64,000 nucleotides of DNA, taken from contig JBHLQM010000003.1 of NCBI GenBank assembly GCA_048884785.1, positions 70,813 to 134,812 on the forward strand. The letters run 5' to 3'. Origin of the DNA: Candidatus Thorarchaeota archaeon. Lineage in GTDB: Archaea > Asgardarchaeota > Thorarchaeia > Thorarchaeales > Thorarchaeaceae. The notes beneath the pieces were generated by a model. That model saw only the letters and a list, made by a program, of their open reading frames with translations. It was not told the origin of the DNA and made no database searches. Below, piece after piece: positions 15,110 to 51,749 of this stretch (position 1 is its first letter; each line of letters opens with the position of its first letter). The translations under genes and the position numbers were made by a program.

Positions 15110-16189
15110 ATGATGAAACCAATAGATGATGATGATGCTACTAATAGGGATGACTCCGATGTAGCAGATGACTCACTTGATGCAGAAACACCGACTATGA
15201 GACGACGTTCATCACACAGGCGAAGGTCAAAGGGAAAGGAATATGCTTCAACAATCAGTTTTGTAGCTTGGATAGCTTTCACAATAATTTGGCTGTTCTT
15301 CTTTGCAAGTACGTATTCTATCTTTGAGAATATAGCTATTGTATTCATTGCTTTATTGATCATTGGTGCGTTGAATGCGGTTCTTTGGATACCCTCGGTT
15401 GAAGGAAAACGTCCCAAGGCGAGTGCTGTCAGTGGAGTCGCATGGATCATATTTCTGATCGTATGGATTATTTTCTTTGCAGCAAGCTTTGGATTCTATG
15501 AGAACATAGGGATCGCTGTTGCTTCGTTACTGTTCATTGGATTCCTGAATATGATGCTCTGGATGCCAACAGAAGGAGATTCTGGAGGAGGAAGAATTAG
15601 CGGAGGCGCAGCGGTATTATGGATGATATTTGCTGTGCTCTGGCTTCCATTTGCTAACGACTTTTCTGAAACTATTTACAGTATAACCTTCTATCAGTCT
15701 GCTTCAATCTTCCTCGCATCACTCCTATTGATGTTAATTGTGGCAGTCGCACCATGGTGGGGTGAGATGTCAATTACAATTGATAGAGAAATAGCGGCTG
15801 GAAGGAAACCAAAGGCAACTGTCGGAATGCTATATCTTTGGATTCTTACGCTAGTTGTTTGGATGTGGTTCTTTGCGGATCTGTATACAGGATACCAGAA
15901 TGTTTCAGCAGTTCTCATTTCATTCGCCATATTTTGCGGTATTGTAGGCGGAATGTGGTATTCGTGGGCACGAAAACGAGACGAAGGGCCTGAGAGCTGG
16001 TTCTCTATAGGTCTTGCGTTCGCTTGGGTAATAACAATTGCACTATGGTTCTGGTTCTTTGCAGACTATTTCGATGTCTATCAAAACGTTGCAGTATTCT
16101 TAGTATCACTATTAGGAGTCGCAGGTATAGGCGGCGCCGCGCAATGGCAAAAGTGGCGAGACTTCGAATCTATGGATTGGAAGGACTGA
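15110..16189 (+). CDS. polytopic membrane protein built from five tandem two-helix repeats
   Basis: 359 aa with an acidic-then-basic N-terminus. Five units follow of the type W(I/V).F..(I/V)W..FFA..F..(Y/F)(E/Q)N(I/V)...L.....G......W. Confidence 0.7.
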   Translation: MMKPIDDDDATNRDDSDVADDSLDAETPTMRRRSSHRRRSKGKEYASTISFVAWIAFTIIWLFFFASTYSIFENIAIVFIALLIIGALNAVLWIPSVEGKRPKASAVSGVAWIIFLIVWIIFFAASFGFYENIGIAVASLLFIGFLNMMLWMPTEGDSGGGRISGGAAVLWMIFAVLWLPFANDFSETIYSITFYQSASIFLASLLLMLIVAVAPWWGEMSITIDREIAAGRKPKATVGMLYLWILTLVVWMWFFADLYTGYQNVSAVLISFAIFCGIVGGMWYSWARKRDEGPESWFSIGLAFAWVITIALWFWFFADYFDVYQNVAVFLVSLLGVAGIGGAAQWQKWRDFESMDWKD

Positions 16190-16313: not shown

Positions 16314-16778
16314 ATGAGCTTCGATATTAGAGCAGAGCCCTTTGTAAAATCCCCAGATGGTGCAAAGCCACGTAAGGGGCGCGGATTCACAAAAGAAGAA
16401 CTCAAGGCAGTTGAAATCACAGTGAGTGATGCGCGAAATATGGGCCTTATTGTTGATACAAGACGGAGAACAGTCCATGAAGAGAATGTTGAGATTCTCA
16501 AGAGATATCTTAAGGAAATGGAGGAGTTAGTCGAGGCTATTCTCGCAGAGGAAAAGGCGGCACCCAAGGCACCCAAGGCACCTGAGGCATCTGATGCCAT
16601 AGCTACCCTATCTAGTTTGAAGGCAGTGACAAAATCGGAAGCAGAAACTCTTGTTGCAGCAGGGATTAAGACCTTTGAAGACCTTGCATATTGTGAGATT
16701 CAAAAGGTAGCAAACAAGACCGGTATCTCAGACGATAGGCTTACCGAAATGGTCACGGCAGCTCTGAAAAAGGTTTAA
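16314..16778 (+). CDS. rpl13e: ribosomal protein eL13 with a C-terminal helix-hairpin-helix-like extension
   Basis: The N-terminal ~75 aa, KSPDGAKPRKGRGFTKEELKAVEITVSDARNMGLIVDTRRR, matches the L13e core. The C-terminal ~60 aa, AETLVAAGIKTFEDLAYCEIQKVANKTGISDDRL, looks HhH-like. Confidence 0.7.
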   Translation: MSFDIRAEPFVKSPDGAKPRKGRGFTKEELKAVEITVSDARNMGLIVDTRRRTVHEENVEILKRYLKEMEELVEAILAEEKAAPKAPKAPEASDAIATLSSLKAVTKSEAETLVAAGIKTFEDLAYCEIQKVANKTGISDDRLTEMVTAALKKV

Positions 16779-16812: not shown

Positions 16813-17913
16813 TTGGACTATGAGAAAATTCTTGAGATGCTTAGGAATCCTCCTAGTTTAGAGCCAATTGTTATTCTACCGGATTTCTTCGTCGACCATT
16901 TTCTCATAACTGGCAAACTTGACGATTTCATTGAGAATCTCCGACATCTTGCCAATCAAGGTGGAGGGAATCTGCTAGGAACACATCAATTCATACGCCG
17001 AGGAGGAAACTCAGCAAATACCGCATCGGCATTGTATTCACTGGGATTAACTCCCAAGCTTATTGTAACAACAGATGAGTATGGGAAACGACTGCTTGAG
17101 TCCCTGACTAGTGATAGACTTGATTTGAAGAATGTTCACACTGACGGATCTCTCTCCTCAACTGTATCCATTGAGGTTGAGCATGAAGGTCGTAGAGTGA
17201 ACCTCATGGTCAGTGATAGTGGTTCAGCGGCATCATTTGGTTTCAATAATCTCAATGAGTCTGATCTGAACGAGATTTCATCCGCAGGATTGGTAGCGCT
17301 TTTTAATCTTAATCACAATACACATGCAGTCGAATTGACCAAAGACCTGTTTTCCTATGTCAGGAATTCTGGGGAAGCAATCACCTACTTGGACGCAGGG
17401 GATCCCTCGGGGCGTCCCGCGATACTACGTCCGCTCGTTCACAATGTCTTTTCAGAAGGGCTTGTTGATATATTAGGAATGAATGAGAACGAGGCAGCTT
17501 GGTTTGCTTGGGCTGTGAGCGGCGGAGATGACAAGTGGAAAGCATCAGTTAGCGAGCCTGATAAATGGATGTCAGCGGCGCGGTATGTTTCGCTAGAAAC
17601 AGGTGTTCAAATCAACCTGCATACACCATTCTTTAGCGCTGTAGTTAATGATGACTCAATAATAGCTACTCCGTCTTTTTCTGTTGAACCCAGAATTATG
17701 TGCGGGGCAGGTGATGCATGGAATGCTGGTAACATCTATGGGCTGGTGTCAAAGCTAGAGTCTAAAGATCGTCTCATATTGGCAAATGCCTTGGCGGCTC
17801 TCTATGTCTCAATGGGAACGGCTGAGCATCCTACACGAACTGAGATTATATCATTTCTTGAAAATAAGCCCATTTTGAGTAGACAGGGCAAAAAGTTACT
17901 TAAGCTTACGTAA
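16813..17913 (+). CDS. PfkB-family carbohydrate kinase
   Basis: 366 aa with a ribokinase-like layout and the C-terminal signature GAGDAWNAG. TTG start. Confidence 0.65.
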   Translation: MDYEKILEMLRNPPSLEPIVILPDFFVDHFLITGKLDDFIENLRHLANQGGGNLLGTHQFIRRGGNSANTASALYSLGLTPKLIVTTDEYGKRLLESLTSDRLDLKNVHTDGSLSSTVSIEVEHEGRRVNLMVSDSGSAASFGFNNLNESDLNEISSAGLVALFNLNHNTHAVELTKDLFSYVRNSGEAITYLDAGDPSGRPAILRPLVHNVFSEGLVDILGMNENEAAWFAWAVSGGDDKWKASVSEPDKWMSAARYVSLETGVQINLHTPFFSAVVNDDSIIATPSFSVEPRIMCGAGDAWNAGNIYGLVSKLESKDRLILANALAALYVSMGTAEHPTRTEIISFLENKPILSRQGKKLLKLT

Positions 17914-17960
17914 CTACTCAAACAAAGGTATCCGATGCTCTGGAGATGTGTTTACACGGA

Positions 17961-18887
17961 ATGGAATTAGAGCGTGTGCTAACAAAGCTCAGATATGATG
18001 AATCTGTTAGCGGCTATGCTCTCTTCACAAATGATGGTAGTCCGTTCCTTTCGTTCTCTCTCCCCGATGAGATTTTTCCTTTGATTCAGGGTACAATGAG
18101 AATACATTCAGATTCTCTCAAGATGATGAATGTTATGACAGGCGAGGGAATAGTTGTTCTAGCAAGAGTTGATTCCAATTGGGTGCTAGGAGTCCTATTT
18201 CTGGTCACTGAATCACTAGGAAGCGCACTCCAAAAGACGAGAAATGTGGTTGATTTGATGGAGTCCGTAGCACTCCCACCACCTCCTTCTCGCCCAGCGG
18301 AAGAAATACCATCCAAACCTGCTCCCGAACCTGTACAAACTGATACAAAACCTGCTTTGGTTGATACCCTGCTTGTTGATGAAACTGTCCCTATACCAAT
18401 AGACGAAATTCTGGTAAGGCATGGCTGCACAGTGTTCAAAGGTCCATTGTATGCAGATGCCATGAAACTAGAGTCTCCGCTCAATAAAAAATTGAGAAAG
18501 AAGTGTGGAAATCTTGGCGTAGATCTTTGCCTCATGATTGACGACAAACGAACCGTCTTTAAAATGGCAGAGAAGTTGGGACGCGGCGTTGAGCAAGCAA
18601 TTGAAGTCGTGACATGGTGTGTATCGAATCACATCATGCGGGTTGAATGCCCTGAAGAGCAGGCATTGGGAACCAAGGAGATCATCGAGCTCCCTCTATT
18701 TGAGGGGGATTTGAAGAAAGCACGGAAGGAGCACCGAGCCATTTTAGAACTCTGTGATGGAAACAGAACTCTCCAAGAAATAGCAGAAATACTCGGAATT
18801 CAATACTTCCAAGCATTGCAGAGCGTTGTGCCCTATCGTGGCAAATCTGTGCAATTCATTCGGAAGTCAAAAGAAATTCACGAGTGA
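17961..18887 (+). CDS. Roadblock/LC7-like domain protein with Pro-rich linker and two winged-helix-like segments (copy 1)
   Basis: The N-terminal ~100 aa show a helix-strand-strand-helix-strand-strand-helix pattern (ELERVLTKLR / SGYALFTNDG / PFLSFS / ... / GIVVLARVD / WVLGVLFLV / helix). The LPPPPSRPAEE linker and C-terminal HTH-like RAILELCDGNRTLQEIAEILGI follow. Paralog of 20750-21721. Confidence 0.6.
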   Translation: MELERVLTKLRYDESVSGYALFTNDGSPFLSFSLPDEIFPLIQGTMRIHSDSLKMMNVMTGEGIVVLARVDSNWVLGVLFLVTESLGSALQKTRNVVDLMESVALPPPPSRPAEEIPSKPAPEPVQTDTKPALVDTLLVDETVPIPIDEILVRHGCTVFKGPLYADAMKLESPLNKKLRKKCGNLGVDLCLMIDDKRTVFKMAEKLGRGVEQAIEVVTWCVSNHIMRVECPEEQALGTKEIIELPLFEGDLKKARKEHRAILELCDGNRTLQEIAEILGIQYFQALQSVVPYRGKSVQFIRKSKEIHE

Positions 18888-18902
18888 CGGAGGTAACGCA
18901 TA

Positions 18903-19409
18903 ATGGGAATCAAAGGAATGATAGCATGGAATTTTATGACAGAAAAAATCTCAAAGACTCTCTATCAAGCGACATATCGCGAATTGCAGAATCTCTTGAT
19001 GGCAACTAGTACAAGCGTTGATGAAATCAACAGGAAGATGAAAGACATAGGCTTTCGAGTTGGTGAAACCCTACTCATGGACTATGCTGATAGAATCCGA
19101 GAACACGCAGTCACATTCTCTGAATTCGCCAGCACACTTCAGTTGGCTTACAAAGTGAATTCAGGACAGTTATTCACCAACATTTGGATTAGTCCAGACA
19201 AGAAGACCATAAAATTCACTGACGACAACTGTCCGATCTGTGCAGGTGTTGTCATTACTGATATGCCAGCTCTACAGTATTGCAATATTGTCAGTGGTGT
19301 GTTCGATGCAGTAATGAAGTTGAGAGGGTTCAGTGCCGAATCATATCAAGAGGCTTGCAGAGCCATTGGAGATGATACATGTACCTGGACATTGAATCTT
19401 CGTGAATAG
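18903..19409 (+). CDS. V4R-domain protein (Bet3-related fold), copy 1
   Basis: 168 aa with the C-terminal V4R signature DDNCPICAGV...YCNIVSGVFDAVMKLRG...YQEACRAIGDDTCTWTL. Confidence 0.65.
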   Translation: MGIKGMIAWNFMTEKISKTLYQATYRELQNLLMATSTSVDEINRKMKDIGFRVGETLLMDYADRIREHAVTFSEFASTLQLAYKVNSGQLFTNIWISPDKKTIKFTDDNCPICAGVVITDMPALQYCNIVSGVFDAVMKLRGFSAESYQEACRAIGDDTCTWTLNLRE

Positions 19410-19478
19410 AAGTGACGGTTGTAGGCCATAGGCATAAAAGGTGTCAGGCAAAATATCCAAGATAGAGGAGGACATGAA

Positions 19479-19997
19479 TTGGGACAGGCTCTCGGTATAT
19501 TAGCTGGTCTGCTCACTGGTTTTATCATTGTGTTCTTGATCTTGACCTTTGGTCAGTTCATTCCTGCTGATGTAGTTAGCGTAAGCATTGTTAATGATTT
19601 TCTCTCTCGAACTGACTTGGAACTGAAACTGACGGTTGTCGCAACTGTACTATACCCTTCAAGTGTGACGACTATCAATTTAGGTACATATGTTGGTTAT
19701 GGAGCCCAAGGGAGTACTGTTCTCATGTTTCTTGCTTGGGGGACAGCTGGATTAATTGCAGGGCTTGTTTCCCGTGATTTTGTTCAGGGCATTTTTGCAG
19801 CCATTCTTGCTGTAGTCCTTGGTGCCTTTCTCACATGGCTTTTAGTCTTCTTTATCAGAAGTACAGACCCTCTTGCTTTGTTCAGTGGCGAGTCTATGCT
19901 GATTCTTGAAGTGGTTCTTGGAGGTGCCATCTATCCAGCAATCGCTGCTTTTGTAGGGGGTCTACTCGGAGGCGGCATCAGTAGAGAGCGACGGTGA
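19479..19997 (+). CDS. integral membrane protein
   Basis: 172 aa with 4-5 Gly/Ala/Leu-rich hydrophobic segments. TTG start. Confidence 0.55.
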   Translation: MGQALGILAGLLTGFIIVFLILTFGQFIPADVVSVSIVNDFLSRTDLELKLTVVATVLYPSSVTTINLGTYVGYGAQGSTVLMFLAWGTAGLIAGLVSRDFVQGIFAAILAVVLGAFLTWLLVFFIRSTDPLALFSGESMLILEVVLGGAIYPAIAAFVGGLLGGGISRERR

Positions 19998-20432
19998 CTC
20001 GATTAAGATTCTTCCACAAACTGCACAAAGCATCGGCTTGGATTTGAATACAGTCCCACATTCGCAGACGGTTTCAATTCCATCTGGAGGAGCAATATCA
20101 GCGCTTTTCCGAATTTGCTTGAATGCAAGAACAAGTGGGAGAGCTGCTATCAGAGAAATAAGGGAGCTGACTGTGCCTGATACGAACATTAGCAGAAGGA
20201 CGTAATTTCTATCGGCCATAGCCCAAAACGAGGGATCCTGTAGCAACATACCCGAAAGAGAAAGAATTCCCAAAATCACGCCTACATAAACTAGTGAGCG
20301 AACCTGATTCCACTCTGAACGAGCAAAAGGTGCTGTAATGATGCCAACACAAAACCAAAGCAAAACTATACGAATTGACTGGACACCAGCAAGAAGAATT
20401 CCAGGTGTTTCCACAAGGGTTTCTGCCCCCAC
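19962..20432 (-). CDS. integral membrane protein with C-terminal zinc ribbon
   Basis: 156 aa with hydrophobic segments followed by CECGTVFKSKPMLCAVCGR. GTG start. The frame stays open for 45 further hydrophobic codons upstream (see findings). Confidence 0.55.
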   Translation of the reverse strand: MGAETLVETPGILLAGVQSIRIVLLWFCVGIITAPFARSEWNQVRSLVYVGVILGILSLSGMLLQDPSFWAMADRNYVLLLMFVSGTVSSLISLIAALPLVLAFKQIRKSADIAPPDGIETVCECGTVFKSKPMLCAVCGRILIESPSLSTDAASE

Positions 20433-20749
20433 AAAAAGAAAGGCGATGGAATCGAATGGGATTGGAAATCCGCCGAGCGTCTCTGGAATGATTAGATTCG
20501 ATAGTCCTGCGCCAGCTATTGCTCCTATAATGCCTGCAATCAGATTTCTCAGTTCACATACACCTCTTCAAATCCAGATTGGTCTGTACTACAAGAGCTC
20601 TTAATGGTATCTGACCAATGTATATGCGTAGCGGCGTATTGAATCGCATTGAGAGAGAACCACACAACCGCAATGCTTTTCAAAGGTTCTCGAAAAATAA
20701 CCTATGCGCGCAAGTCCGCTAGTCGTTAGAGACCGTGAGGCAGGATAGT

Positions 20750-21721
20750 ATGTCAGCAGATTTAGAGCGAGCATTGTCAAAACTCAGATTTGACGAACAA
20801 GTACTAGGTTACTCTCTTATGACAAAACAGGGACGGCCATTTGTAAGTTTCGCATTTCCTGATGAATTGTTTCCTCGTGTGAAGGATTCAATTAGTCTTT
20901 ACAAGACCGATCTACGACTCATGACAATTGACACCGAACAAGGATTGGTTGTTTTATCCCCTGTTGATGATAACTGGATTCTGACGGTTCTCTATGTCCC
21001 TGAGCTTCAACTGGGTCTTGCTATTGCTAAGACCAAGAATGTTCTCAGGCTTCTAGAAGGTGTTGAGCTGCCGCCTCCGCCTGATGAGTTTGAAGAATCA
21101 GCGGAAACCAATTTACAAGTTCTGGAGAGCATTGCCATAAAAGCTGCATCGACAGCCGCAGAGGAAGCAACCATGGCACCTCTAAAGCCTGCCGAAGTAG
21201 TACCTCCAGAGCCAAAGCACGTAGAAAAATCTCCTGATGATTTCATAATTACCTCAAGCACGGTTCCTATGAGAGGCTCTACATATTCCAATTCCCTATC
21301 CTTGGATTCTGACCTATATAATCAAATGAAGGCAAAATACAGGAACTTCGGATTTGATGTTCTAATGCTTGTGGATGGAAATATGGGCATTGTGGATATT
21401 GCAGATAGTATGTTCCAGCCAACTGAAAGAGTGATTGAGTGTCTCAAGTGGGCGGCATCAAAAGGTATTGTCGATGTTCCATCTGCAGCGGTGCCCTCTG
21501 GAGAAGCACCGAAAACGAGGACTGGTCGTTTTGTGAAATGCCCTAAGTTTGAAGGAGATGTATCTCGAGTGGATGGCGATGATGCAAAAATCTTGAAGCT
21601 TTGTAATGGCTCAAGATCCACTGAAGACATTGCCAAAACTGCTGGAGTCCAACAATCTCAAGTGATCAGTGTGCTTGCCAAGTATCGCAAGGACATTAAG
21701 ATGATTGGCAAAACTATCTAA
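20750..21721 (+). CDS. Roadblock/LC7-like domain protein with linker and winged-helix-like segments (copy 2)
   Basis: Its N-terminal ~105 aa align without gaps to copy 1 (DLERALSKLRFDEQVLGYSLMTKQGRPFVSFAFPDELFP...VELPPPP). An Ala/Glu/Pro linker and C-terminal HTH-like AKILKLCNGSRSTEDIAKTAGV follow. I chose ATG 20750 over GTG 20735. Confidence 0.6.
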   Translation: MSADLERALSKLRFDEQVLGYSLMTKQGRPFVSFAFPDELFPRVKDSISLYKTDLRLMTIDTEQGLVVLSPVDDNWILTVLYVPELQLGLAIAKTKNVLRLLEGVELPPPPDEFEESAETNLQVLESIAIKAASTAAEEATMAPLKPAEVVPPEPKHVEKSPDDFIITSSTVPMRGSTYSNSLSLDSDLYNQMKAKYRNFGFDVLMLVDGNMGIVDIADSMFQPTERVIECLKWAASKGIVDVPSAAVPSGEAPKTRTGRFVKCPKFEGDVSRVDGDDAKILKLCNGSRSTEDIAKTAGVQQSQVISVLAKYRKDIKMIGKTI

Positions 21722-21742
21722 TACACTGGAGGTCTTTTCCTC

Positions 21743-22216
21743 ATGCCTAAAGTTGAGAATCCATTGCTGCTTACCATATATACTCACATGGTTGAGAAAA
21801 TCCTGGGGGAAACGAATAACATTGAAGAGGCGAATGAACATCTTCGAGGCGTAGGGCGTGAAATCGGGTCGCATCTCTATCTTAATACTGAGATAGCGGA
21901 TAAAACCAAGGATACAATCAATACACGTGAGGATGTAGCAAAGCTCGTGGATGTTGTATACAAAGTACTCTATGAAAAGAAACCTCAAGATGTCGATATG
22001 GACTCTGCAAGAGGTTCAATCCGCGTGAGCGACAGGAACTGCGTGTGGTGCCAAGAAGTGTCTCTTGAAGGGATGAGAGGATTTGGCTACTGTGAGATAT
22101 TCAGTGGCATCATGGAGGCGATTCTGGAATTCAAAGGGGTTCAAGCAAAAGTATTCCAAGAAATGAGTCGAGCCACTGGATCTGATTTGTGTGTGTGGAA
22201 CATCCGGCTAGCGTAA
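21743..22216 (+). CDS. V4R-domain protein (Bet3-related fold), copy 2
   Basis: 157 aa with SDRNCVWCQEV...YCEIFSGIMEAILEFKG...FQEMSRATGSDLCVWNI. Confidence 0.65.
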   Translation: MPKVENPLLLTIYTHMVEKILGETNNIEEANEHLRGVGREIGSHLYLNTEIADKTKDTINTREDVAKLVDVVYKVLYEKKPQDVDMDSARGSIRVSDRNCVWCQEVSLEGMRGFGYCEIFSGIMEAILEFKGVQAKVFQEMSRATGSDLCVWNIRLA

Positions 22217-22290
22217 TGCACTCCTATATATCTGCATAAAGCACATATTCAGCACTGTAGAACTGAGTTCCGCTAGTCAGGTGAACATGA

Positions 22291-22839
22291 ATGTCCAAGC
22301 AAGAAGATGTTATTCCATGGTGGCACGGGAAGCTGAAAGAAAGAGATTTGATGCGTGCATTCTTTTCTAAGACTTGGAACAAAATAGGAAGTCGAATCGC
22401 TGTTATGTTCCCGGACCGAGTTCGAGACCTGTACTACAGTGCGGGACGTTTAGCTGGCCTTGAAGCACAGCGTGAATATTTCAAGATTGGCAAGCAAAAA
22501 CCGCCGGGGGATTTCAAGGGGATTATTGAGTTCATAAAAATGTCATTGGAAACCCTCATTGTCCCCTTTGGTGACATCAAGATTGCCAAACTATACAAAC
22601 TCTGGCTAGATGAAGAAGCAATCATCGAAATCAAAGATAATCCATATGCAGAAGGAATCGAGAGTCCGGAGCCTTCATGTTATTTTCTGAAAGGATTCGT
22701 AGAATCTGTACTTGAGTATCTCACTGATTACAACAGAATTGAATATGAGACTCTCAATGTGACCGAAGATAGCTGTATTTCGACAGGGAAGGACCTTTGC
22801 TCATTCCATATCAAACTTAGCTATCCGCCAAAAGGTTAA
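22291..22839 (+). CDS. divergent V4R-like protein
   Basis: 182 aa with the C-terminal ...SCYFLKGFVESVLEYL...EDSCISTGKDLCSFHIKL. It keeps the G...E..C..G.D.C.F core but lacks the first CxxC. Confidence 0.5.
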   Translation: MSKQEDVIPWWHGKLKERDLMRAFFSKTWNKIGSRIAVMFPDRVRDLYYSAGRLAGLEAQREYFKIGKQKPPGDFKGIIEFIKMSLETLIVPFGDIKIAKLYKLWLDEEAIIEIKDNPYAEGIESPEPSCYFLKGFVESVLEYLTDYNRIEYETLNVTEDSCISTGKDLCSFHIKLSYPPKG

Positions 22840-39829: not shown

Positions 39830-40363
39830 ATGAGCGACTCTTTCGATTATATGAGAAAGGTATGCATGATCGGAGCAGGTGGTAGTGGGAAGACAGCTAT
39901 CGTGAATCGATTCCTTACACAGAAGTTCTCAGAGCAGTATATTGTAACTATCGGTAGTCAGTTTGCAGTCAAGACAGTGGCAGTCATTAATGGACATGGG
40001 GATACAATTAGAATCAAGCTCTTGGTCTGGGACCTTGCGGGTCAGGAGCGTTTTGATTTCATACGGACGAGCTACTATAAGGGCTCAAAGGGTGCCCTTC
40101 TTGTCTATGATGTAACAAGAAAAAGCACATGGATGGAATTACCAAAATGGATTGATGAGACCGAGAACGCTCTCGGGATGAGAATCCCCATTGTTTTGCT
40201 GGCAAATAAGGTTGATATCGTTGAGGATCGAGTTATCTCTCGGGAAATGGGTCTGCAGTTTGTTGAAGAGAATAATCTGAATGGCTATCTTGAAACAAGC
40301 GCACTTTCAGGACAAAACATCGAAGAAGCATTCAGGCAGCTCGCTCAGAATACAATTTCCTGA
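39830..40363 (+). CDS. Rab-like small GTPase
   Basis: G1 GAGGSGKT, switch I TIGSQF, G3 WDLAGQERF, G4 NKVD, G5 ETSALSG. 177 aa, no C-terminal Cys. Confidence 0.85.
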   Translation: MSDSFDYMRKVCMIGAGGSGKTAIVNRFLTQKFSEQYIVTIGSQFAVKTVAVINGHGDTIRIKLLVWDLAGQERFDFIRTSYYKGSKGALLVYDVTRKSTWMELPKWIDETENALGMRIPIVLLANKVDIVEDRVISREMGLQFVEENNLNGYLETSALSGQNIEEAFRQLAQNTIS

Positions 40364-49766: not shown

Positions 49767-51749
49767 GTGATCCACAATACATTCCTCATTCGAGCTTCGA
49801 CCAACGAGATTCTAGCAAGCACACAATACTGGCCTGTTGAAGTCGACAAAGCAGCTCTGAATGAATTCATTGCAACTCGAGAAGAACTTCGTAAAGAGGA
49901 TTCAACACTGGCAAACTTTCCATTGATTATTGGAGACGACAAATTTCAGGGTCGGGACTTGGCTACAGATGTGGTTCTTATTTTTGTGACTGATAAGGGG
50001 GAGGACGAATCTGCAATTGGAGATCGACTAGATTCTGCAGTATCCTCTTTAAGAAAGCGACTTGCAAAGAAAAGCCTACCAGAAGTATTGGATACTTTCG
50101 GGTCTATCATCGAGCCTTCCATCATTACTCGTTTGAAGATTGCCCTGGTTGGAGAAGGTGGTGTCGGAAAAACTACAACCCTTCACCTCCTCATGGGGGA
50201 CACACCCCCACTTCAATACGTACCAACAATCGCACTTAACCTTGAAACGGTTGAGAACATCCGTTTTGGAAACTATTCACTTGTGCTTTGGGATTTTGCT
50301 GGCCAGGAACGGTTCAGAAATCTCTGGAAATTCTACTTCCATGGAGCAGACGTCATCTTCCTAGTATGTGATTCATCCCTGCGGAACGTCATTATTAGCA
50401 AAGATATTTACAAACTCATTAAGCGCGATGCACCTAAGGTGCCTGTATTTGCTCTTGCGAATAAACAAGATAAGCCCAATGCGATGAGATCTGAGGTTGT
50501 ACAGAAGATATTGGGCATTCCCACATACCCCATGGTAGCAATCGACAAAAGTCGTCGAGATGAGATGCTGCGGATACTAATGACCGCTGCTGCACAGTTT
50601 GTTGGTGTCGTTCTTCCTGACTTACCAGCATCTGAACTTCTGCGATTTACTGATGAAGCAACAGCAGGTGCAATAGAGACTGAGCAGCTAAGCTCAATGA
50701 AGGAGATTGAAGAAGAAGAACAAGAAGCTGATGTTGAGGAAGTTTTCGTCGATGAGGAGGGTCATATTCTAACTGCAGAAGAGATGGAAGGAGAATTTGA
50801 CTACGAAATTGTTGAAGAAGTCATTGAAGTCGATGAAGAGGCAAATGAAATTGAAGCGGATGAATTAGAGGTGGCCTCGTCAGAGGAGATGCTCGATGCT
50901 CCGGTCGAAATGACTGATGAAGTTTCAGAGGCTGCAATTCCTGAATCCGAAGAAGAACCCACTATGCCAAAAGCTATGCTTGAACAAGAGATAGCTACTG
51001 AAGCCACAAAAGATGAGGCTGAGATGCCTGTTGAGCCCGAAGACACGAGGATTTCGGACTCTGAACCAATCACTGAATTTGCACCTCCTACCGAAGAGGA
51101 TATAGCTGATATTGAAGTTGATTTGACTGCTGAGGAGGAACCCACTTCCAAGCTGGAGGAGCCAGCCGAAACCTCCACTGAACATTGGGTTGAGGATATT
51201 GAAGAAGAAGTACATTCTGATGTTGATGAAGACATCACAGTACAAGAATCACCAACTCCTGAGCCCAGCCTTGAAACATCTCCAGAGGCTTCAAAATTAA
51301 CTGAGGCATGGGAGCTTGCTACAGTGTCAACTGATGATAGAGATGAATCAGCTGTTTCTATTGAAATGACAGAGGATATGTCGGAAGAAGCAATAGGAGA
51401 ACATCCTGTCGAATCCGATGATTCGCGCAGAATGGCCAAGGATTTAATCTCAGAAGCGCTTGATGCAGATGATATTATCGCGGCTGAAATTGAGAGAGTT
51501 TCGGAAGATGAATTGCATATAGCTCTTGAGGCGTTTTCAAGTGATGAAACAGTTTCAAAAGATGAAGAAGAGAACGAAGTTTCAACCGAACAGATTGCCC
51601 AGGAGGCTTTGAAAGAACTTGAAGACATCTTGGGTCCTGTGGACGAGCAAACGTCTTTGGATGAAAAAGCAGACACAGATGATGTAGAAGAGGACCTCGA
51701 TGCCCTAGACACATTGTTTGCGATGATGTTTGGGGATGATGACAAGTAA
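49767..51749 (+). CDS. longin-like domain + Ras/Rab-like small GTPase + long acidic disordered tail
   Basis: 660 aa. The GTPase motifs are GEGGVGKTT, WDFAGQERF and NKQD (aa ~123-275). The N-terminal ~115 aa are alpha/beta longin-like. Residues ~305-660 are Glu/Asp/Ser/Thr/Ala/Pro-rich. GTG start. Confidence 0.75.
   Translation: MIHNTFLIRASTNEILASTQYWPVEVDKAALNEFIATREELRKEDSTLANFPLIIGDDKFQGRDLATDVVLIFVTDKGEDESAIGDRLDSAVSSLRKRLAKKSLPEVLDTFGSIIEPSIITRLKIALVGEGGVGKTTTLHLLMGDTPPLQYVPTIALNLETVENIRFGNYSLVLWDFAGQERFRNLWKFYFHGADVIFLVCDSSLRNVIISKDIYKLIKRDAPKVPVFALANKQDKPNAMRSEVVQKILGIPTYPMVAIDKSRRDEMLRILMTAAAQFVGVVLPDLPASELLRFTDEATAGAIETEQLSSMKEIEEEEQEADVEEVFVDEEGHILTAEEMEGEFDYEIVEEVIEVDEEANEIEADELEVASSEEMLDAPVEMTDEVSEAAIPESEEEPTMPKAMLEQEIATEATKDEAEMPVEPEDTRISDSEPITEFAPPTEEDIADIEVDLTAEEEPTSKLEEPAETSTEHWVEDIEEEVHSDVDEDITVQESPTPEPSLETSPEASKLTEAWELATVSTDDRDESAVSIEMTEDMSEEAIGEHPVESDDSRRMAKDLISEALDADDIIAAEIERVSEDELHIALEAFSSDETVSKDEEENEVSTEQIAQEALKELEDILGPVDEQTSLDEKADTDDVEEDLDALDTLFAMMFGDDDK

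Follow-up and report, generated by a model that had tools for sequence, protein, structure and literature searches.

A duplicated Roadblock-winged-helix and TRAPPC3/Bet3-family gene module in Thorarchaeota as a possible GTPase-regulating platform

TRAPP is built from Bet3-type and longin-type subunits, and the eukaryotic nutrient-sensing proteins NPRL2/NPRL3 act as the GAP for RagA (PMC10933270, PMC12290439). A locus in a 64,000-nucleotide stretch of Thorarchaeota DNA (contig JBHLQM010000003.1; here, the window) encodes two copies of a gene pair with features of both, raising the question of whether the products assemble and what such an assembly would regulate. All open reading frames described in a first-pass annotation were found again at the same positions. 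A1 (17961..18887) and A2 (20750..21721), on the forward strand, are indeed full-length paralogs (BLASTP E value of 1e-61, 32% identity). Their N-terminal ~106 residues align without gaps at 47% identity, close to the earlier estimate of roughly half, and in both proteins this domain is closed by the motif LPPPP. As had been noted, each is followed at short distance by a smaller gene on the same strand, with 15 nt between A1 and B1 (18903..19409) and 21 nt between A2 and B2 (21743..22216); B1 and B2 are likewise paralogs (E value of 4e-25, 25% identity). The third V4R gene proposed after B2 is C (22291..22839, forward strand), which scores 34 bits against the Pfam V4R cut-off of 31.

The region between the copies encodes two membrane proteins, as annotated. 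M1 (19479..19997, forward strand) is a polytopic protein with approximately 4 predicted transmembrane segments and Gly-rich conserved motifs, as judged from hydropathy and conservation in 68 Thorarchaeota sequences. M2 (19962..20432, reverse strand) has 3 to 4 predicted transmembrane segments and a conserved C-terminal CxC...SxP..CxxCG zinc-ribbon-like tail; its ribbon had been given as CxxC...CxxC but reads CxC...CxxC in the window. The M2 frame is open to 20552, the position of the ATG in its orthologs. A conserved intergenic block upstream of A2 (20667..20686, forward strand; ACCGCAATGCTTTTCAAAGG), with at least 80% conservation across 64 Thorarchaeota intergenic regions, may act as a BRE/TATA promoter element that drives A2-B2-C. 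For the A2 start, the ATG at 20750 is favored over the GTG at 20735 because a Shine-Dalgarno-like (G)AGG(T) (20737..20741, forward strand), 9 to 13 nt upstream of this ATG, is conserved. A PfkB-family kinase gene (16813..17913, forward strand; Pfam PfkB, 1e-14) ends 47 nt upstream of A1 and is possibly associated with the module.

The N-terminal domains of the A proteins (residues 1 to 105 of A1, nt 17961 to 18275; residues 1 to 107 of A2, nt 20750 to 21070) had been assigned to the Roadblock fold. On the basis of AF2 models (pLDDT ~90) and Foldseek searches we are confident of this fold, but the strand order originally suggested needs amendment: the predicted topology runs alpha-beta-beta-alpha-beta-beta-beta-alpha, where helix 2 is followed by three strands and not two. 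Foldseek searches with the A2 N terminus matched Asgard Roadblocks, LAMTOR, and LC7 (E value of 1e-6, TM score of 0.63 to 0.73). Weak but in-register matches to Robl_LC7 were detected in 14 of 37 A-family members, and an hhalign comparison of the family with the window's own Roadblock protein was also weak but in register (E value of 0.004). Some JGI orthologs of A carry Roadblock/LC7/MglB annotation. None of the Roadblock, NPRL3-HTH, or DUF742 matches of A1 and A2 themselves reaches its curated threshold, and when the window was scanned by hmmsearch, N- and C-terminal profiles of the A family matched A1 and A2 only.

The two winged helices predicted to follow a linker are present in the AF2 models. 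In A1, a Pro/Glu-rich acidic linker leads to a tandem winged helix at approximately residues 150 to 308 (nt 18408 to 18884). In A2, models, Foldseek, and alignment place WH1 at residues 176 to 245 (nt 21275 to 21484) and WH2 at residues 258 to 323 (nt 21521 to 21718), and the acidic linker contains a conserved helix (residues 118 to 134) specific to A2. NPRL2/NPRL3 chains were the best Foldseek matches of the full-length A model and also of its C-terminal half, for which they made up the 13 best PDB matches. A homolog of the winged-helix region found in L102, aligned to the A C terminus at 95.6% probability, reaches Pfam HTH_NPRL3 (29.5 bits; cut-off, 27.2), and A itself has no match to Pfam NPR2 or NPR3. 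Like A, NPRL2/NPRL3 (GATOR1/SEACIT, the GAP for RagA/Gtr1) have a Roadblock/longin-superfold N terminus followed by C-terminal winged helices, and they too are a paralogous pair. The A architecture is nearer to NPRL2/NPRL3 than to the longin subunits of TRAPP, which lack winged helices. The likeness is incomplete: the N terminus of NPRL2/NPRL3 is a longin domain whereas that of A has Roadblock topology, the NPRL2/NPRL3 GP motif is only G-x-P in A, without a demonstrated Arg finger, the DEPDC5-like partner of GATOR1 is absent here, and A pairs with a Bet3-family protein that GATOR1 lacks.

Two other systems invite comparison with A. Liu et al. described an "NPRL2-like" family in most Thorarchaeota MAGs (bioRxiv 10.1101/2020.10.19.343400); in phyletic pattern and in the type of its C-terminal domain it could correspond to the A family or to the longin-winged-helix relatives of A, but the preprint gives it a longin N terminus and makes no mention of TRAPP or V4R neighbors. 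The actinobacterial conservon (CvnA-D/MfpB-E) encodes a Roadblock/LC7 protein and a DUF742 winged-helix-turn-helix (wHTH) protein, which in mycobacteria are the GAP (MfpD) and the GEF (MfpC) of MfpB (PMC9769811, PMC11343762). In the A family, Roadblock and wHTH are united in one protein, with subthreshold DUF742 matches in 16 of 37 members. The conservon operon always includes a GTPase and a sensor-kinase-like membrane protein, whereas the module studied here has neither but includes a Bet3-family subunit.

The small genes had been described as V4R proteins. They do belong to the Bet3/TRAPPC3/V4R family, but they are more than V4R, since both B1 (27.6 bits) and B2 (39.2 bits) reach the curated Pfam TRAPP/Bet3 cut-off of 27. 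In PDB searches B2 matched 7yh3 and 7yh2 with E values of 5.5e-79 and 3.7e-77, which by sequence makes it the ortholog of Thor-TRAPPC3. For its paralog B1, the values were 9e-22 with 7yh3 and between 4e-5 and 3e-4 with eukaryotic TRAPPC3/Bet3. The four-cysteine zinc site is kept in B2 (C100, C103, C117, and C150), and C110, C113, C127, and C160 of B1 align with it; eukaryotic TRAPPC3 lacks this site and has as partners the longin-type TRAPPC1 and TRAPPC4, which are without winged helices. C, which adds a third paralog of the Bet3/V4R fold and evolves most slowly of all genes in the block, matched MJ1460 (2osd) at 0.005. The TRAPPC3 half of the module was thus already known, its structure having been solved by Tran et al. 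(2024), who crystallized Thor-TRAPPC3 alone as a homodimer and did not mention a genomic partner (PMC10933270).

Conservation of the A-B pairing in related genomes had been proposed as a test. Among Thorarchaeota species loci, A2 is followed by B2 in all 63 and A1 by B1 in 57 of 60, M1 comes after B1 in 58 of 59, C comes after B2 in all 60, and the PfkB kinase lies 5' of A1. This synteny is uninformative, however, because an entire 13-kb block including L13e, PfkB, and an ABC transporter is collinear across Thorarchaeota, so that unrelated flanking genes are equally conserved. Evolutionary rates of C, B1, B2, and A2 lie below that of the ribosomal protein L13e of the same block. Outside Thorarchaeota the pairing recurs, adjacent or fused, in two further Asgard classes, making three in all. 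In Ranarchaeia, TRAPP genes lie 2 to 18 nt after longin-winged-helix homologs in two unrelated contexts; the A C terminus aligned to this family with 99.2% probability (E value of 1e-19), and one of the TRAPP genes shares 45% identity with B1. In Helarchaeota, a single polypeptide has the order longin-WH-WH-V4R, with the V4R domain above the Pfam cut-off. The longin relatives of A have subthreshold matches to Sybindin (TRAPPC1/C4), and Tran et al. described a Heimdall longin-TRAPPC3 fusion (PMC10933270). Because the pairing recurs in unrelated Ranarchaeia contexts and as the Helarchaeota fusion, we infer, with good support, that A and B form a physical complex.

Alternatively, A and B might act independently and be neighbors only through inherited synteny and segmental duplication. 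The collinear block is compatible with this, as are the mirror-tree analysis, which gave no A-B signal (partial correlations of 0.06 for A1-B1 and 0.04 for A2-B2), the loss of B1 in three Thorarchaeota species that keep A1, and the stable homodimer formed by B2 (PMC10933270); we nevertheless consider it very improbable given the Ranarchaeia contexts, the Helarchaeota polypeptide, and gaps of only 2 to 21 nt. Another reading, which we judge distinctly unlikely, is that a hydrophobic ligand is passed by the Bet3/V4R proteins to or from M1 and M2, much as mammalian TRAPPC3 binds palmitate, with A as an adaptor and with no involvement of GTPase or DNA. Thor-TRAPPC3 has internal cavities, and "ligand transport" was proposed for this protein (PMC10933270), M1 and M2 are kept between the two copies in every Thorarchaeota species, and B1 and M1 show a residual correlation of 0.28. 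An M2-like ribbon protein also adjoins P0255, a distant Roadblock-WH1 relative, and membrane proteins lie 5' of the P0270-like group. However, homologs of M1 and M2 are missing from the Ranarchaeia and Helarchaeota loci, M2 is matched only weakly in L077 (E value of 4.5e-4, small database), and the Roadblock and NPRL-type winged-helix domains would be left without a role.

A ligand- or redox-sensing regulator resembling MsvR is a serious rival to the GTPase reading, although on balance we find it rather unlikely. MsvR is a characterized redox-sensitive repressor from methanogenic archaea in which a wHTH precedes a Cys-bearing V4R domain whose cysteines control DNA binding (PMC3729527). By analogy, DNA would be bound by the A winged helices, and the Bet3/V4R proteins would act as sensing partners by means of their Cys4-Zn site and hydrophobic pocket, the two parts being fused in Helarchaeota and split in Thorarchaeota and Ranarchaeia; the Roadblock/longin domain would serve only for dimerization or as a second sensor, and the module would control transcription of neighboring genes, for example those for the membrane proteins, the ABC transporter, or the PfkB kinase. 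The Helarchaeota fusions share the HTH-then-V4R order, B1, B2, and C weakly match the V4R half of MsvR, a PfkB kinase adjoins the module in both Thorarchaeota and Helarchaeota, and no GTPase gene is found in the conserved neighborhood in Thorarchaeota, Ranarchaeia, or Helarchaeota. The A winged helices might bind nucleic acid, since WH2 and its wing are basic (pI 9.2 to 11.7). Tran et al. prefer ligand binding for Thor-TRAPPC3 (PMC10933270), and Liu et al. report NPRL2-like longin domains fused to two-component signaling domains. In contrast, the nearest wHTH families (NPRL2/3 CTD, DUF742/MfpC, PqqD, and HTH_47) bind protein or peptide rather than DNA (PMC11343762), WH1 and the entire A protein are acidic (pI ~5), the linker carrying a charge between -10 and -13, and the M2-A2 intergenic region lacks a conserved palindromic operator. 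MsvR itself contains one DNA-binding HTH but lacks a Roadblock/longin domain, and matches of the module to it score 16 to 19 bits, far below the family cut-off of 220 bits. The PfkB kinase of Helarchaeota, 3' of the fusion gene, is a different one, distantly related to that of Thorarchaeota (~25% identity) and on the opposite side of the module.

The reading we tentatively prefer, at slightly under an even chance, is that the locus encodes an Asgard-specific scaffold plus a Bet3/TRAPPC3/V4R module, forming a TRAPP- or GATOR1-like GTPase-regulating platform. The scaffold subunits A1 and A2, in each of which a long, disordered, acidic linker joins the Roadblock domain to NPRL2/NPRL3-type tandem winged helices, would dimerize through their Roadblock domains as an A1/A2 heterodimer, like other Roadblock and longin platforms. 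Dimers of the small zinc-binding Bet3/TRAPPC3-family proteins B1 and B2 and of the V4R paralog C would dock on A1/A2, probably near M1 and M2, and ligand or redox input may come from the hydrophobic pocket or the Zn-thiolate site of these subunits. Counting against such a platform are the lack of a GTPase gene in the conserved neighborhoods, the near-zero mirror-tree correlations, the homodimer that Thor-TRAPPC3 forms on its own, the subthreshold domain matches of A1 and A2, and the basic WH2, along with the facts that P0259, another distant Roadblock-WH1 relative, has no TRAPP neighbor and that B1 can be lost while A1 persists. The first-pass annotation had envisaged a heteromeric Roadblock-V4R complex acting on the small GTPases of the window; the assembly is indirectly backed by the Ranarchaeia and Helarchaeota loci, but no link to the GTPases at 39830, 49767, and 56777 emerged, and the small GTPase whose nucleotide state the platform would regulate would be encoded elsewhere. 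Recurrence of the pairing points to a complex in archaea that is related to the GTPase-regulating machines of eukaryotes.

The first-pass annotation described a duplicated pair of genes, a Roadblock plus winged-helix protein followed by a V4R protein, with membrane proteins between the copies, and all of its open reading frames were present in the window. The first copy consists of A1 (17961-18887) and B1 (18903-19409) and the second of A2 (20750-21721, with an ATG start codon at 20750) and B2 (21743-22216), which is followed by a further V4R gene, C (22291-22839). The polytopic membrane proteins M1 (19479-19997) and M2 (19962-20432, minus strand) are encoded between them. The window comes from a Thorarchaeota MAG, and A2 is 100% identical to NCBI protein ACFFEF_00920. 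The paralogy proposed for A1 and A2 extended over their full length (E 1e-61, 32% identity), with 47% identity over the N-terminal ~106 residues and the domain ending in LPPPP in both, and the spacing from A to B was 15 and 21 nt, as described. B1 and B2 are also paralogs (E 4e-25).

We modeled A2 with AlphaFold2 from a 37-sequence alignment (mean pLDDT 80.7). Residues 1-102 (pLDDT ~90) form an alpha-beta-beta-alpha-beta-beta-beta-alpha arrangement in the model, and a disordered acidic linker and two winged helices, WH1 and WH2, follow. The Roadblock topology previously read from the sequence was therefore retained, although three strands rather than two follow helix 2. Foldseek matched the A2 N terminus to Roadblock structures (E 1.5e-6, TM 0.63-0.73), the PDB matches being Asgard Roadblocks, LAMTOR2, and dynein LC7. 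At the sequence level, support for the predicted domains of A was weak but consistent. Neither A1 nor A2 reached the gathering score of the Roadblock/LC7 family (Pfam PF03259) or matched it at E<1; Robl_LC7 matches below threshold were found in 14 of the 37 A-family members (best E 0.028), an hhalign comparison of the A N terminus with the window's own Roadblock protein aligned the two in register (E 0.004), and some A1 orthologs carry a JGI annotation of Roadblock/LC7/MglB. Matches below threshold to DUF742 (16/37; best E 0.0023) and HTH_47 (33/37) were also detected. Single-sequence and profile searches of the PDB with A returned no match, and none of A, M1, and M2 received a family name from NCBIfam. 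Within the variable acidic linker of A2, residues 118-134 (21101-21151) form a near-invariant NLQVLESIA..AAST segment, predicted with low confidence to be helical; it occurs in A2 orthologs, is missing from A1, and is a candidate short binding motif.

The best full-length PDB matches of the A2 model were the NPRL2 and NPRL3 chains of GATOR1/SEACIT (Foldseek E 1e-8); TM scores were low because the domains are oriented differently to one another. When residues 160-323 were modeled separately (pLDDT 86.9), the 13 best PDB matches were NPRL2/NPRL3 chains (E 1e-4 to 2e-2), which ranked above generic HTH proteins, and 8fw5_C and the corresponding chains were confirmed as NPRL3. The top 50 Foldseek matches of the C-terminal model included no ESCRT-II-type tandem winged helices. 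At the structural level, A thus has the C-terminal winged-helix type of NPRL2 and NPRL3. By sequence, A itself matched the NPRL3-type HTH at E 0.22 only, and one relative, in locus L102, scored above the Pfam HTH_NPRL3 cut-off. The N termini differ: NPRL2 and NPRL3 have a longin domain, whereas A has Roadblock topology with an N-terminal helix, and no profile similarity was found between the A N terminus and the longin domains of its winged-helix homologs. A hallmark of NPRL2/NPRL3 is a GP motif before beta2 together with a catalytic Arg finger (PMC12290439). In A, an invariant G28-x-P30 precedes beta2, reading GRP in A2, where R29 is ~90% conserved, and GSP in A1. A 213-residue protein, P0263 (L084:1327-1968), joins a longin-like N terminus to a winged helix 55% identical to A1 WH2, which is evidence that N-terminal domains have been shuffled while the winged helix was conserved. 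In another compared locus, a longin-GTPase fusion (L085:8143-8822) is encoded 3.3 kb downstream of a longin gene with two winged helices.

The small proteins had been annotated as V4R. This held for C, which passed the V4R gathering score (Pfam PF02830, 34 bits; cut-off 31) and weakly matched the V4R protein MJ1460 (2osd), but B1 and B2 also go beyond V4R, passing the curated TRAPP/Bet3 threshold (Pfam PF04051; 27.6 and 39.2 bits, respectively; cut-off 27). B2 is an ortholog of the protein deposited as "TRAPPC3 from Thorarchaeota" (7yh3, E 5.5e-79; 7yh2, E 3.7e-77), and B1 matched 7yh3 at E 9e-22 and eukaryotic TRAPPC3/Bet3 structures at E 4e-5 to 3e-4. Thorarchaeotal TRAPPC3 has been solved as a Zn-binding homodimer with internal cavities, in a study in which the neighboring genes go unmentioned (Tran et al. 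2024, PMC10933270). The four Zn-ligand cysteines align among B1, B2, and one Ranarchaeia homolog; they align partially in C and not in a second Ranarchaeia TRAPP protein. Sub-threshold matches to Sybindin, the TRAPPC1/C4 family, were present in 3 of 19 longin relatives; with the adjacency and fusion to Roadblock/longin proteins described below, they offer only indirect evidence for a TRAPP-type assembly of Bet3-type and longin-type subunits that would act as a Rab GEF.

The A family occurs almost exclusively in Thorarchaeota, with ~293 clusters at 90% identity and, at 50% identity, only about three full-length clusters among 1.8 billion representatives; all 73 species-representative A loci carried a Thorarchaeota or generic label. 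The genes lie in a collinear 13-kb thorarchaeotal block, DUF72-L13e-PfkB-A1-B1-M1-M2-A2-B2-C-HTH-ABC-FtsX, in which A2 is followed by B2 in 63/63 loci, B2 by C in 60/60, and A1 by B1 in 57/60. This synteny alone proves nothing about coupling of A and B, because collinearity is just as strong for L13e, PfkB, the HTH gene, and ABC/FtsX. In three thorarchaeotal species, an unrelated gene on the minus strand takes the place of B1 (L029:3213-3899; L035; L072), such that only ~30 C-terminal B1 codons are detectable while A1, M1, A2, B2, and C are intact. A mirror-tree test of 35 complete thorarchaeotal loci gave no signal of co-evolution between A and B (0.06 and 0.04). Residual correlation was highest for B2-C (0.38), which hints at a B2-C heterodimer, followed by B1-M1 (0.28). 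Mean Kimura distances were 0.23 for C, 0.32 for B1, 0.34 for B2, and 0.41 for A2, all slower than L13e (0.55) and the ABC ATPase (0.45) of the same block. Upstream, L13e (16314-16778) carries a C-terminal helix-hairpin-helix-like extension with sub-threshold HHH_5 and DUF4332 matches. No Pfam family matched a 359-residue protein (15110-16189) with ~10 predicted transmembrane segments and internal repeats (W..F..W..FF motifs); it differs from the remainder of the block in that only the closest relatives (L066, L069) yielded a match to it.

Outside Thorarchaeota, weaker profile-search matches of A had the winged-helix region alone in common and a longin-like N terminus. The A C terminus is homologous to a Ranarchaeia longin plus winged-helix family (99.2% probability, E 1e-19, 137 columns). 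One Ranarchaeia member, P0268, has a TRAPP gene (33.7 bits) 2 nt downstream in a context unrelated to the thorarchaeotal block; another, P0274, has a second longin plus winged-helix paralog upstream and, 18 nt downstream, a TRAPP gene whose product is 45% identical to B1. A metagenome scan recovered Helarchaeota proteins of 454-479 residues in which a longin-like domain and two winged helices are fused to a V4R domain that forms the C terminus and scores above the Pfam cut-off; their homology to the Ranarchaeia family reaches E 1e-40. An hhalign match between our TRAPP alignment A5 and the Helarchaeota family was set aside as circular, because A5 contains Helarchaeota sequences. A Heimdall fusion of longin and TRAPPC3 has been mentioned previously (Tran et al., PMC10933270). 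Proteins with a Roadblock or longin domain plus tandem winged helices are therefore neighbors of Bet3/V4R proteins in two Asgard classes and fused to them in a third, a pattern classically taken as evidence that such proteins are physical or functional partners. These data suggest that A-type and B-type proteins probably work together. That A and B form no complex appears very unlikely. The distant Roadblock plus WH1 relative P0259 has no TRAPP neighbor.

The cysteine ribbon described in M2 is present, although its motif is CxC...CxxC rather than CxxC...CxxC, and in Thorarchaeota its tail motif CxC..SxP..CxxCG shows conservation of at least 90%. P0255, another distant Roadblock plus WH1 relative, adjoins a membrane protein with an M2-like ribbon tail. 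Periodic conservation places the start of thorarchaeotal M2 orthologs ~40 codons upstream at an ATG, where the window has CTG (20550-20552, minus strand); the frame continues upstream without a stop, and the longer protein would gain a GxxxG-rich transmembrane helix. The window M2 may therefore have a non-canonical start codon, an N-terminal shortening (GTG at 20432), or an assembly error. A 13-nt inverted repeat (20639-20683) was rejected as an operator, its left arm being non-conserved. A PfkB-family kinase (16813-17913) lies directly upstream of A1 in Thorarchaeota, and one lies 28-31 nt downstream of the Helarchaeota fusion (L087:5432-6358, L089:5395-6351, L104:11400-12359, L105:11427-12383), which is itself preceded by a RimK-type ATP-grasp gene. 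At only ~25% identity (E 1e-3), the two kinases were not accepted as orthologs, and their association with the modules may be functional or coincidental.

The module had been proposed to act on the small GTPases of the window. This link was not borne out: the GTPases are 17-35 kb away, and no GTPase gene is linked in the thorarchaeotal block or near the Ranarchaeia and Helarchaeota relatives. A Rab-like GTPase (39830-40363), not linked to the module, has the crystallized Thorarchaeota Rab 7ezb as its best PDB match (E 1e-40), followed by eukaryotic Rab4, Rab14, Rab11, and Ypt1. The only part of a 660-residue protein (49767-51749) with a Pfam match is an Arf/Roc-type GTPase domain spanning residues 122-259. 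A co-directional cluster (56777-62837) is an MglA/MglB-like GTPase-Roadblock operon separate from the A-B module, encoding a small GTPase (56777-57487), a TPR protein (57552-58424), a protein of 1287 residues that weakly matches Peptidase_C25 (58509-62372), and a genuine Roadblock/LC7 protein (62379-62837; Pfam 1.5e-20).

Ragulator and MglB are platforms built on Roadblock domains. In TRAPP, Bet3 and longin subunits come together, and NPRL2/3 is a GAP (PMC10933270, PMC12290439); in the mycobacterial conservon, the Roadblock protein is a GAP and the DUF742 wHTH protein a GEF (PMC9769811, PMC11343762). By analogy with such systems, we tentatively favor the possibility that the module is a GTPase-regulating platform, against which count the lack of a linked GTPase gene in Thorarchaeota, Ranarchaeia, and Helarchaeota, the distance to the GTPases, and the mirror-tree result. 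The conservon (CvnB/CvnC/CvnD; MfpD/MfpC/MfpB) places Roadblock, DUF742, small GTPase, and sensor-kinase-like genes in one operon, whereas the thorarchaeotal block contains neither of the last two and its DUF742 matches are sub-threshold only. An ancestral version of the platform reading appears unlikely: the thorarchaeotal module would be a surviving relative of an Asgard complex that joined Bet3-type subunits to a heterodimer of NPRL2/3 type (Roadblock or longin plus winged helix), the eukaryotic TRAPP core and longin-GAP complexes would derive from that one archaeal assembly, and the thorarchaeotal version would be a working ligand-gated GEF or GAP.

The main rival, somewhat doubtful in our view, is a sensor-regulator resembling MsvR, a redox-sensing repressor with wHTH and V4R domains (PMC3729527). 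B1, B2, and C weakly match the V4R half of MsvR, WH2 is basic, and a PfkB kinase adjoins the module in Thorarchaeota and Helarchaeota alike. However, the closest wHTH families are protein- or peptide-binding, A is acidic both in WH1 and as a whole, and a conserved operator sought in the M2-A2 intergenic region was not found, only promoter- and SD-like blocks being conserved there. Moreover, the MsvR matches reached 16-19 bits against an NCBIfam equivalog score of 220 bits, and MsvR is a single HTH plus V4R polypeptide, whereas the thorarchaeotal proteins are split and include a Roadblock domain. Ligand handling at the membrane is quite improbable as the module's role; M1 and M2 are conserved across all thorarchaeotal loci and have no homologs at the Ranarchaeia and Helarchaeota loci. 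A defense-system reading was rejected, PADLOC giving no hits.

Thorarchaeotal TRAPPC3 is already known, and an "NPRL2-like" family in Thorarchaeota was noted by Liu et al. (bioRxiv 10.1101/2020.10.19.343400); we found no report in the searchable literature that couples an NPRL2-like scaffold to TRAPPC3. What appears to be new here is the A-B coupling, including its duplication into two scaffolds and three Bet3/V4R subunits, the exchange of Roadblock for longin, and the Helarchaeota fusion. Asgard homologs of TRAPP, Ragulator, and GATOR have hitherto been studied singly, protein by protein, and Tran et al. 2024 (PMC10933270) noted that regulators could not be paired with their partners from genome layout. 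The locus provides a concrete prediction, backed by gene fusion, that an NPRL2/3-like Roadblock scaffold partners with TRAPPC3-like proteins, and it is directly testable, since one partner has been crystallized and a thorarchaeotal Rab purified. If the module is a ligand- or redox-sensing transcription module, "eukaryotic signature" Bet3/longin proteins should be taken with caution as a sign of Asgard membrane trafficking. If the complex instead proves to be a GTPase regulator, the origins of two eukaryotic machines, TRAPP and GATOR1, would be linked through it. Should the ancestral complex prove real, the Bet3-longin TRAPP core and GATOR1 with its relatives would share one archaeal ancestor assembly, and the thorarchaeotal set of two scaffolds and three Bet3/V4R proteins would act at the membrane on a Rab- or Rag-like Asgard GTPase, as its ligand-gated GEF or GAP.
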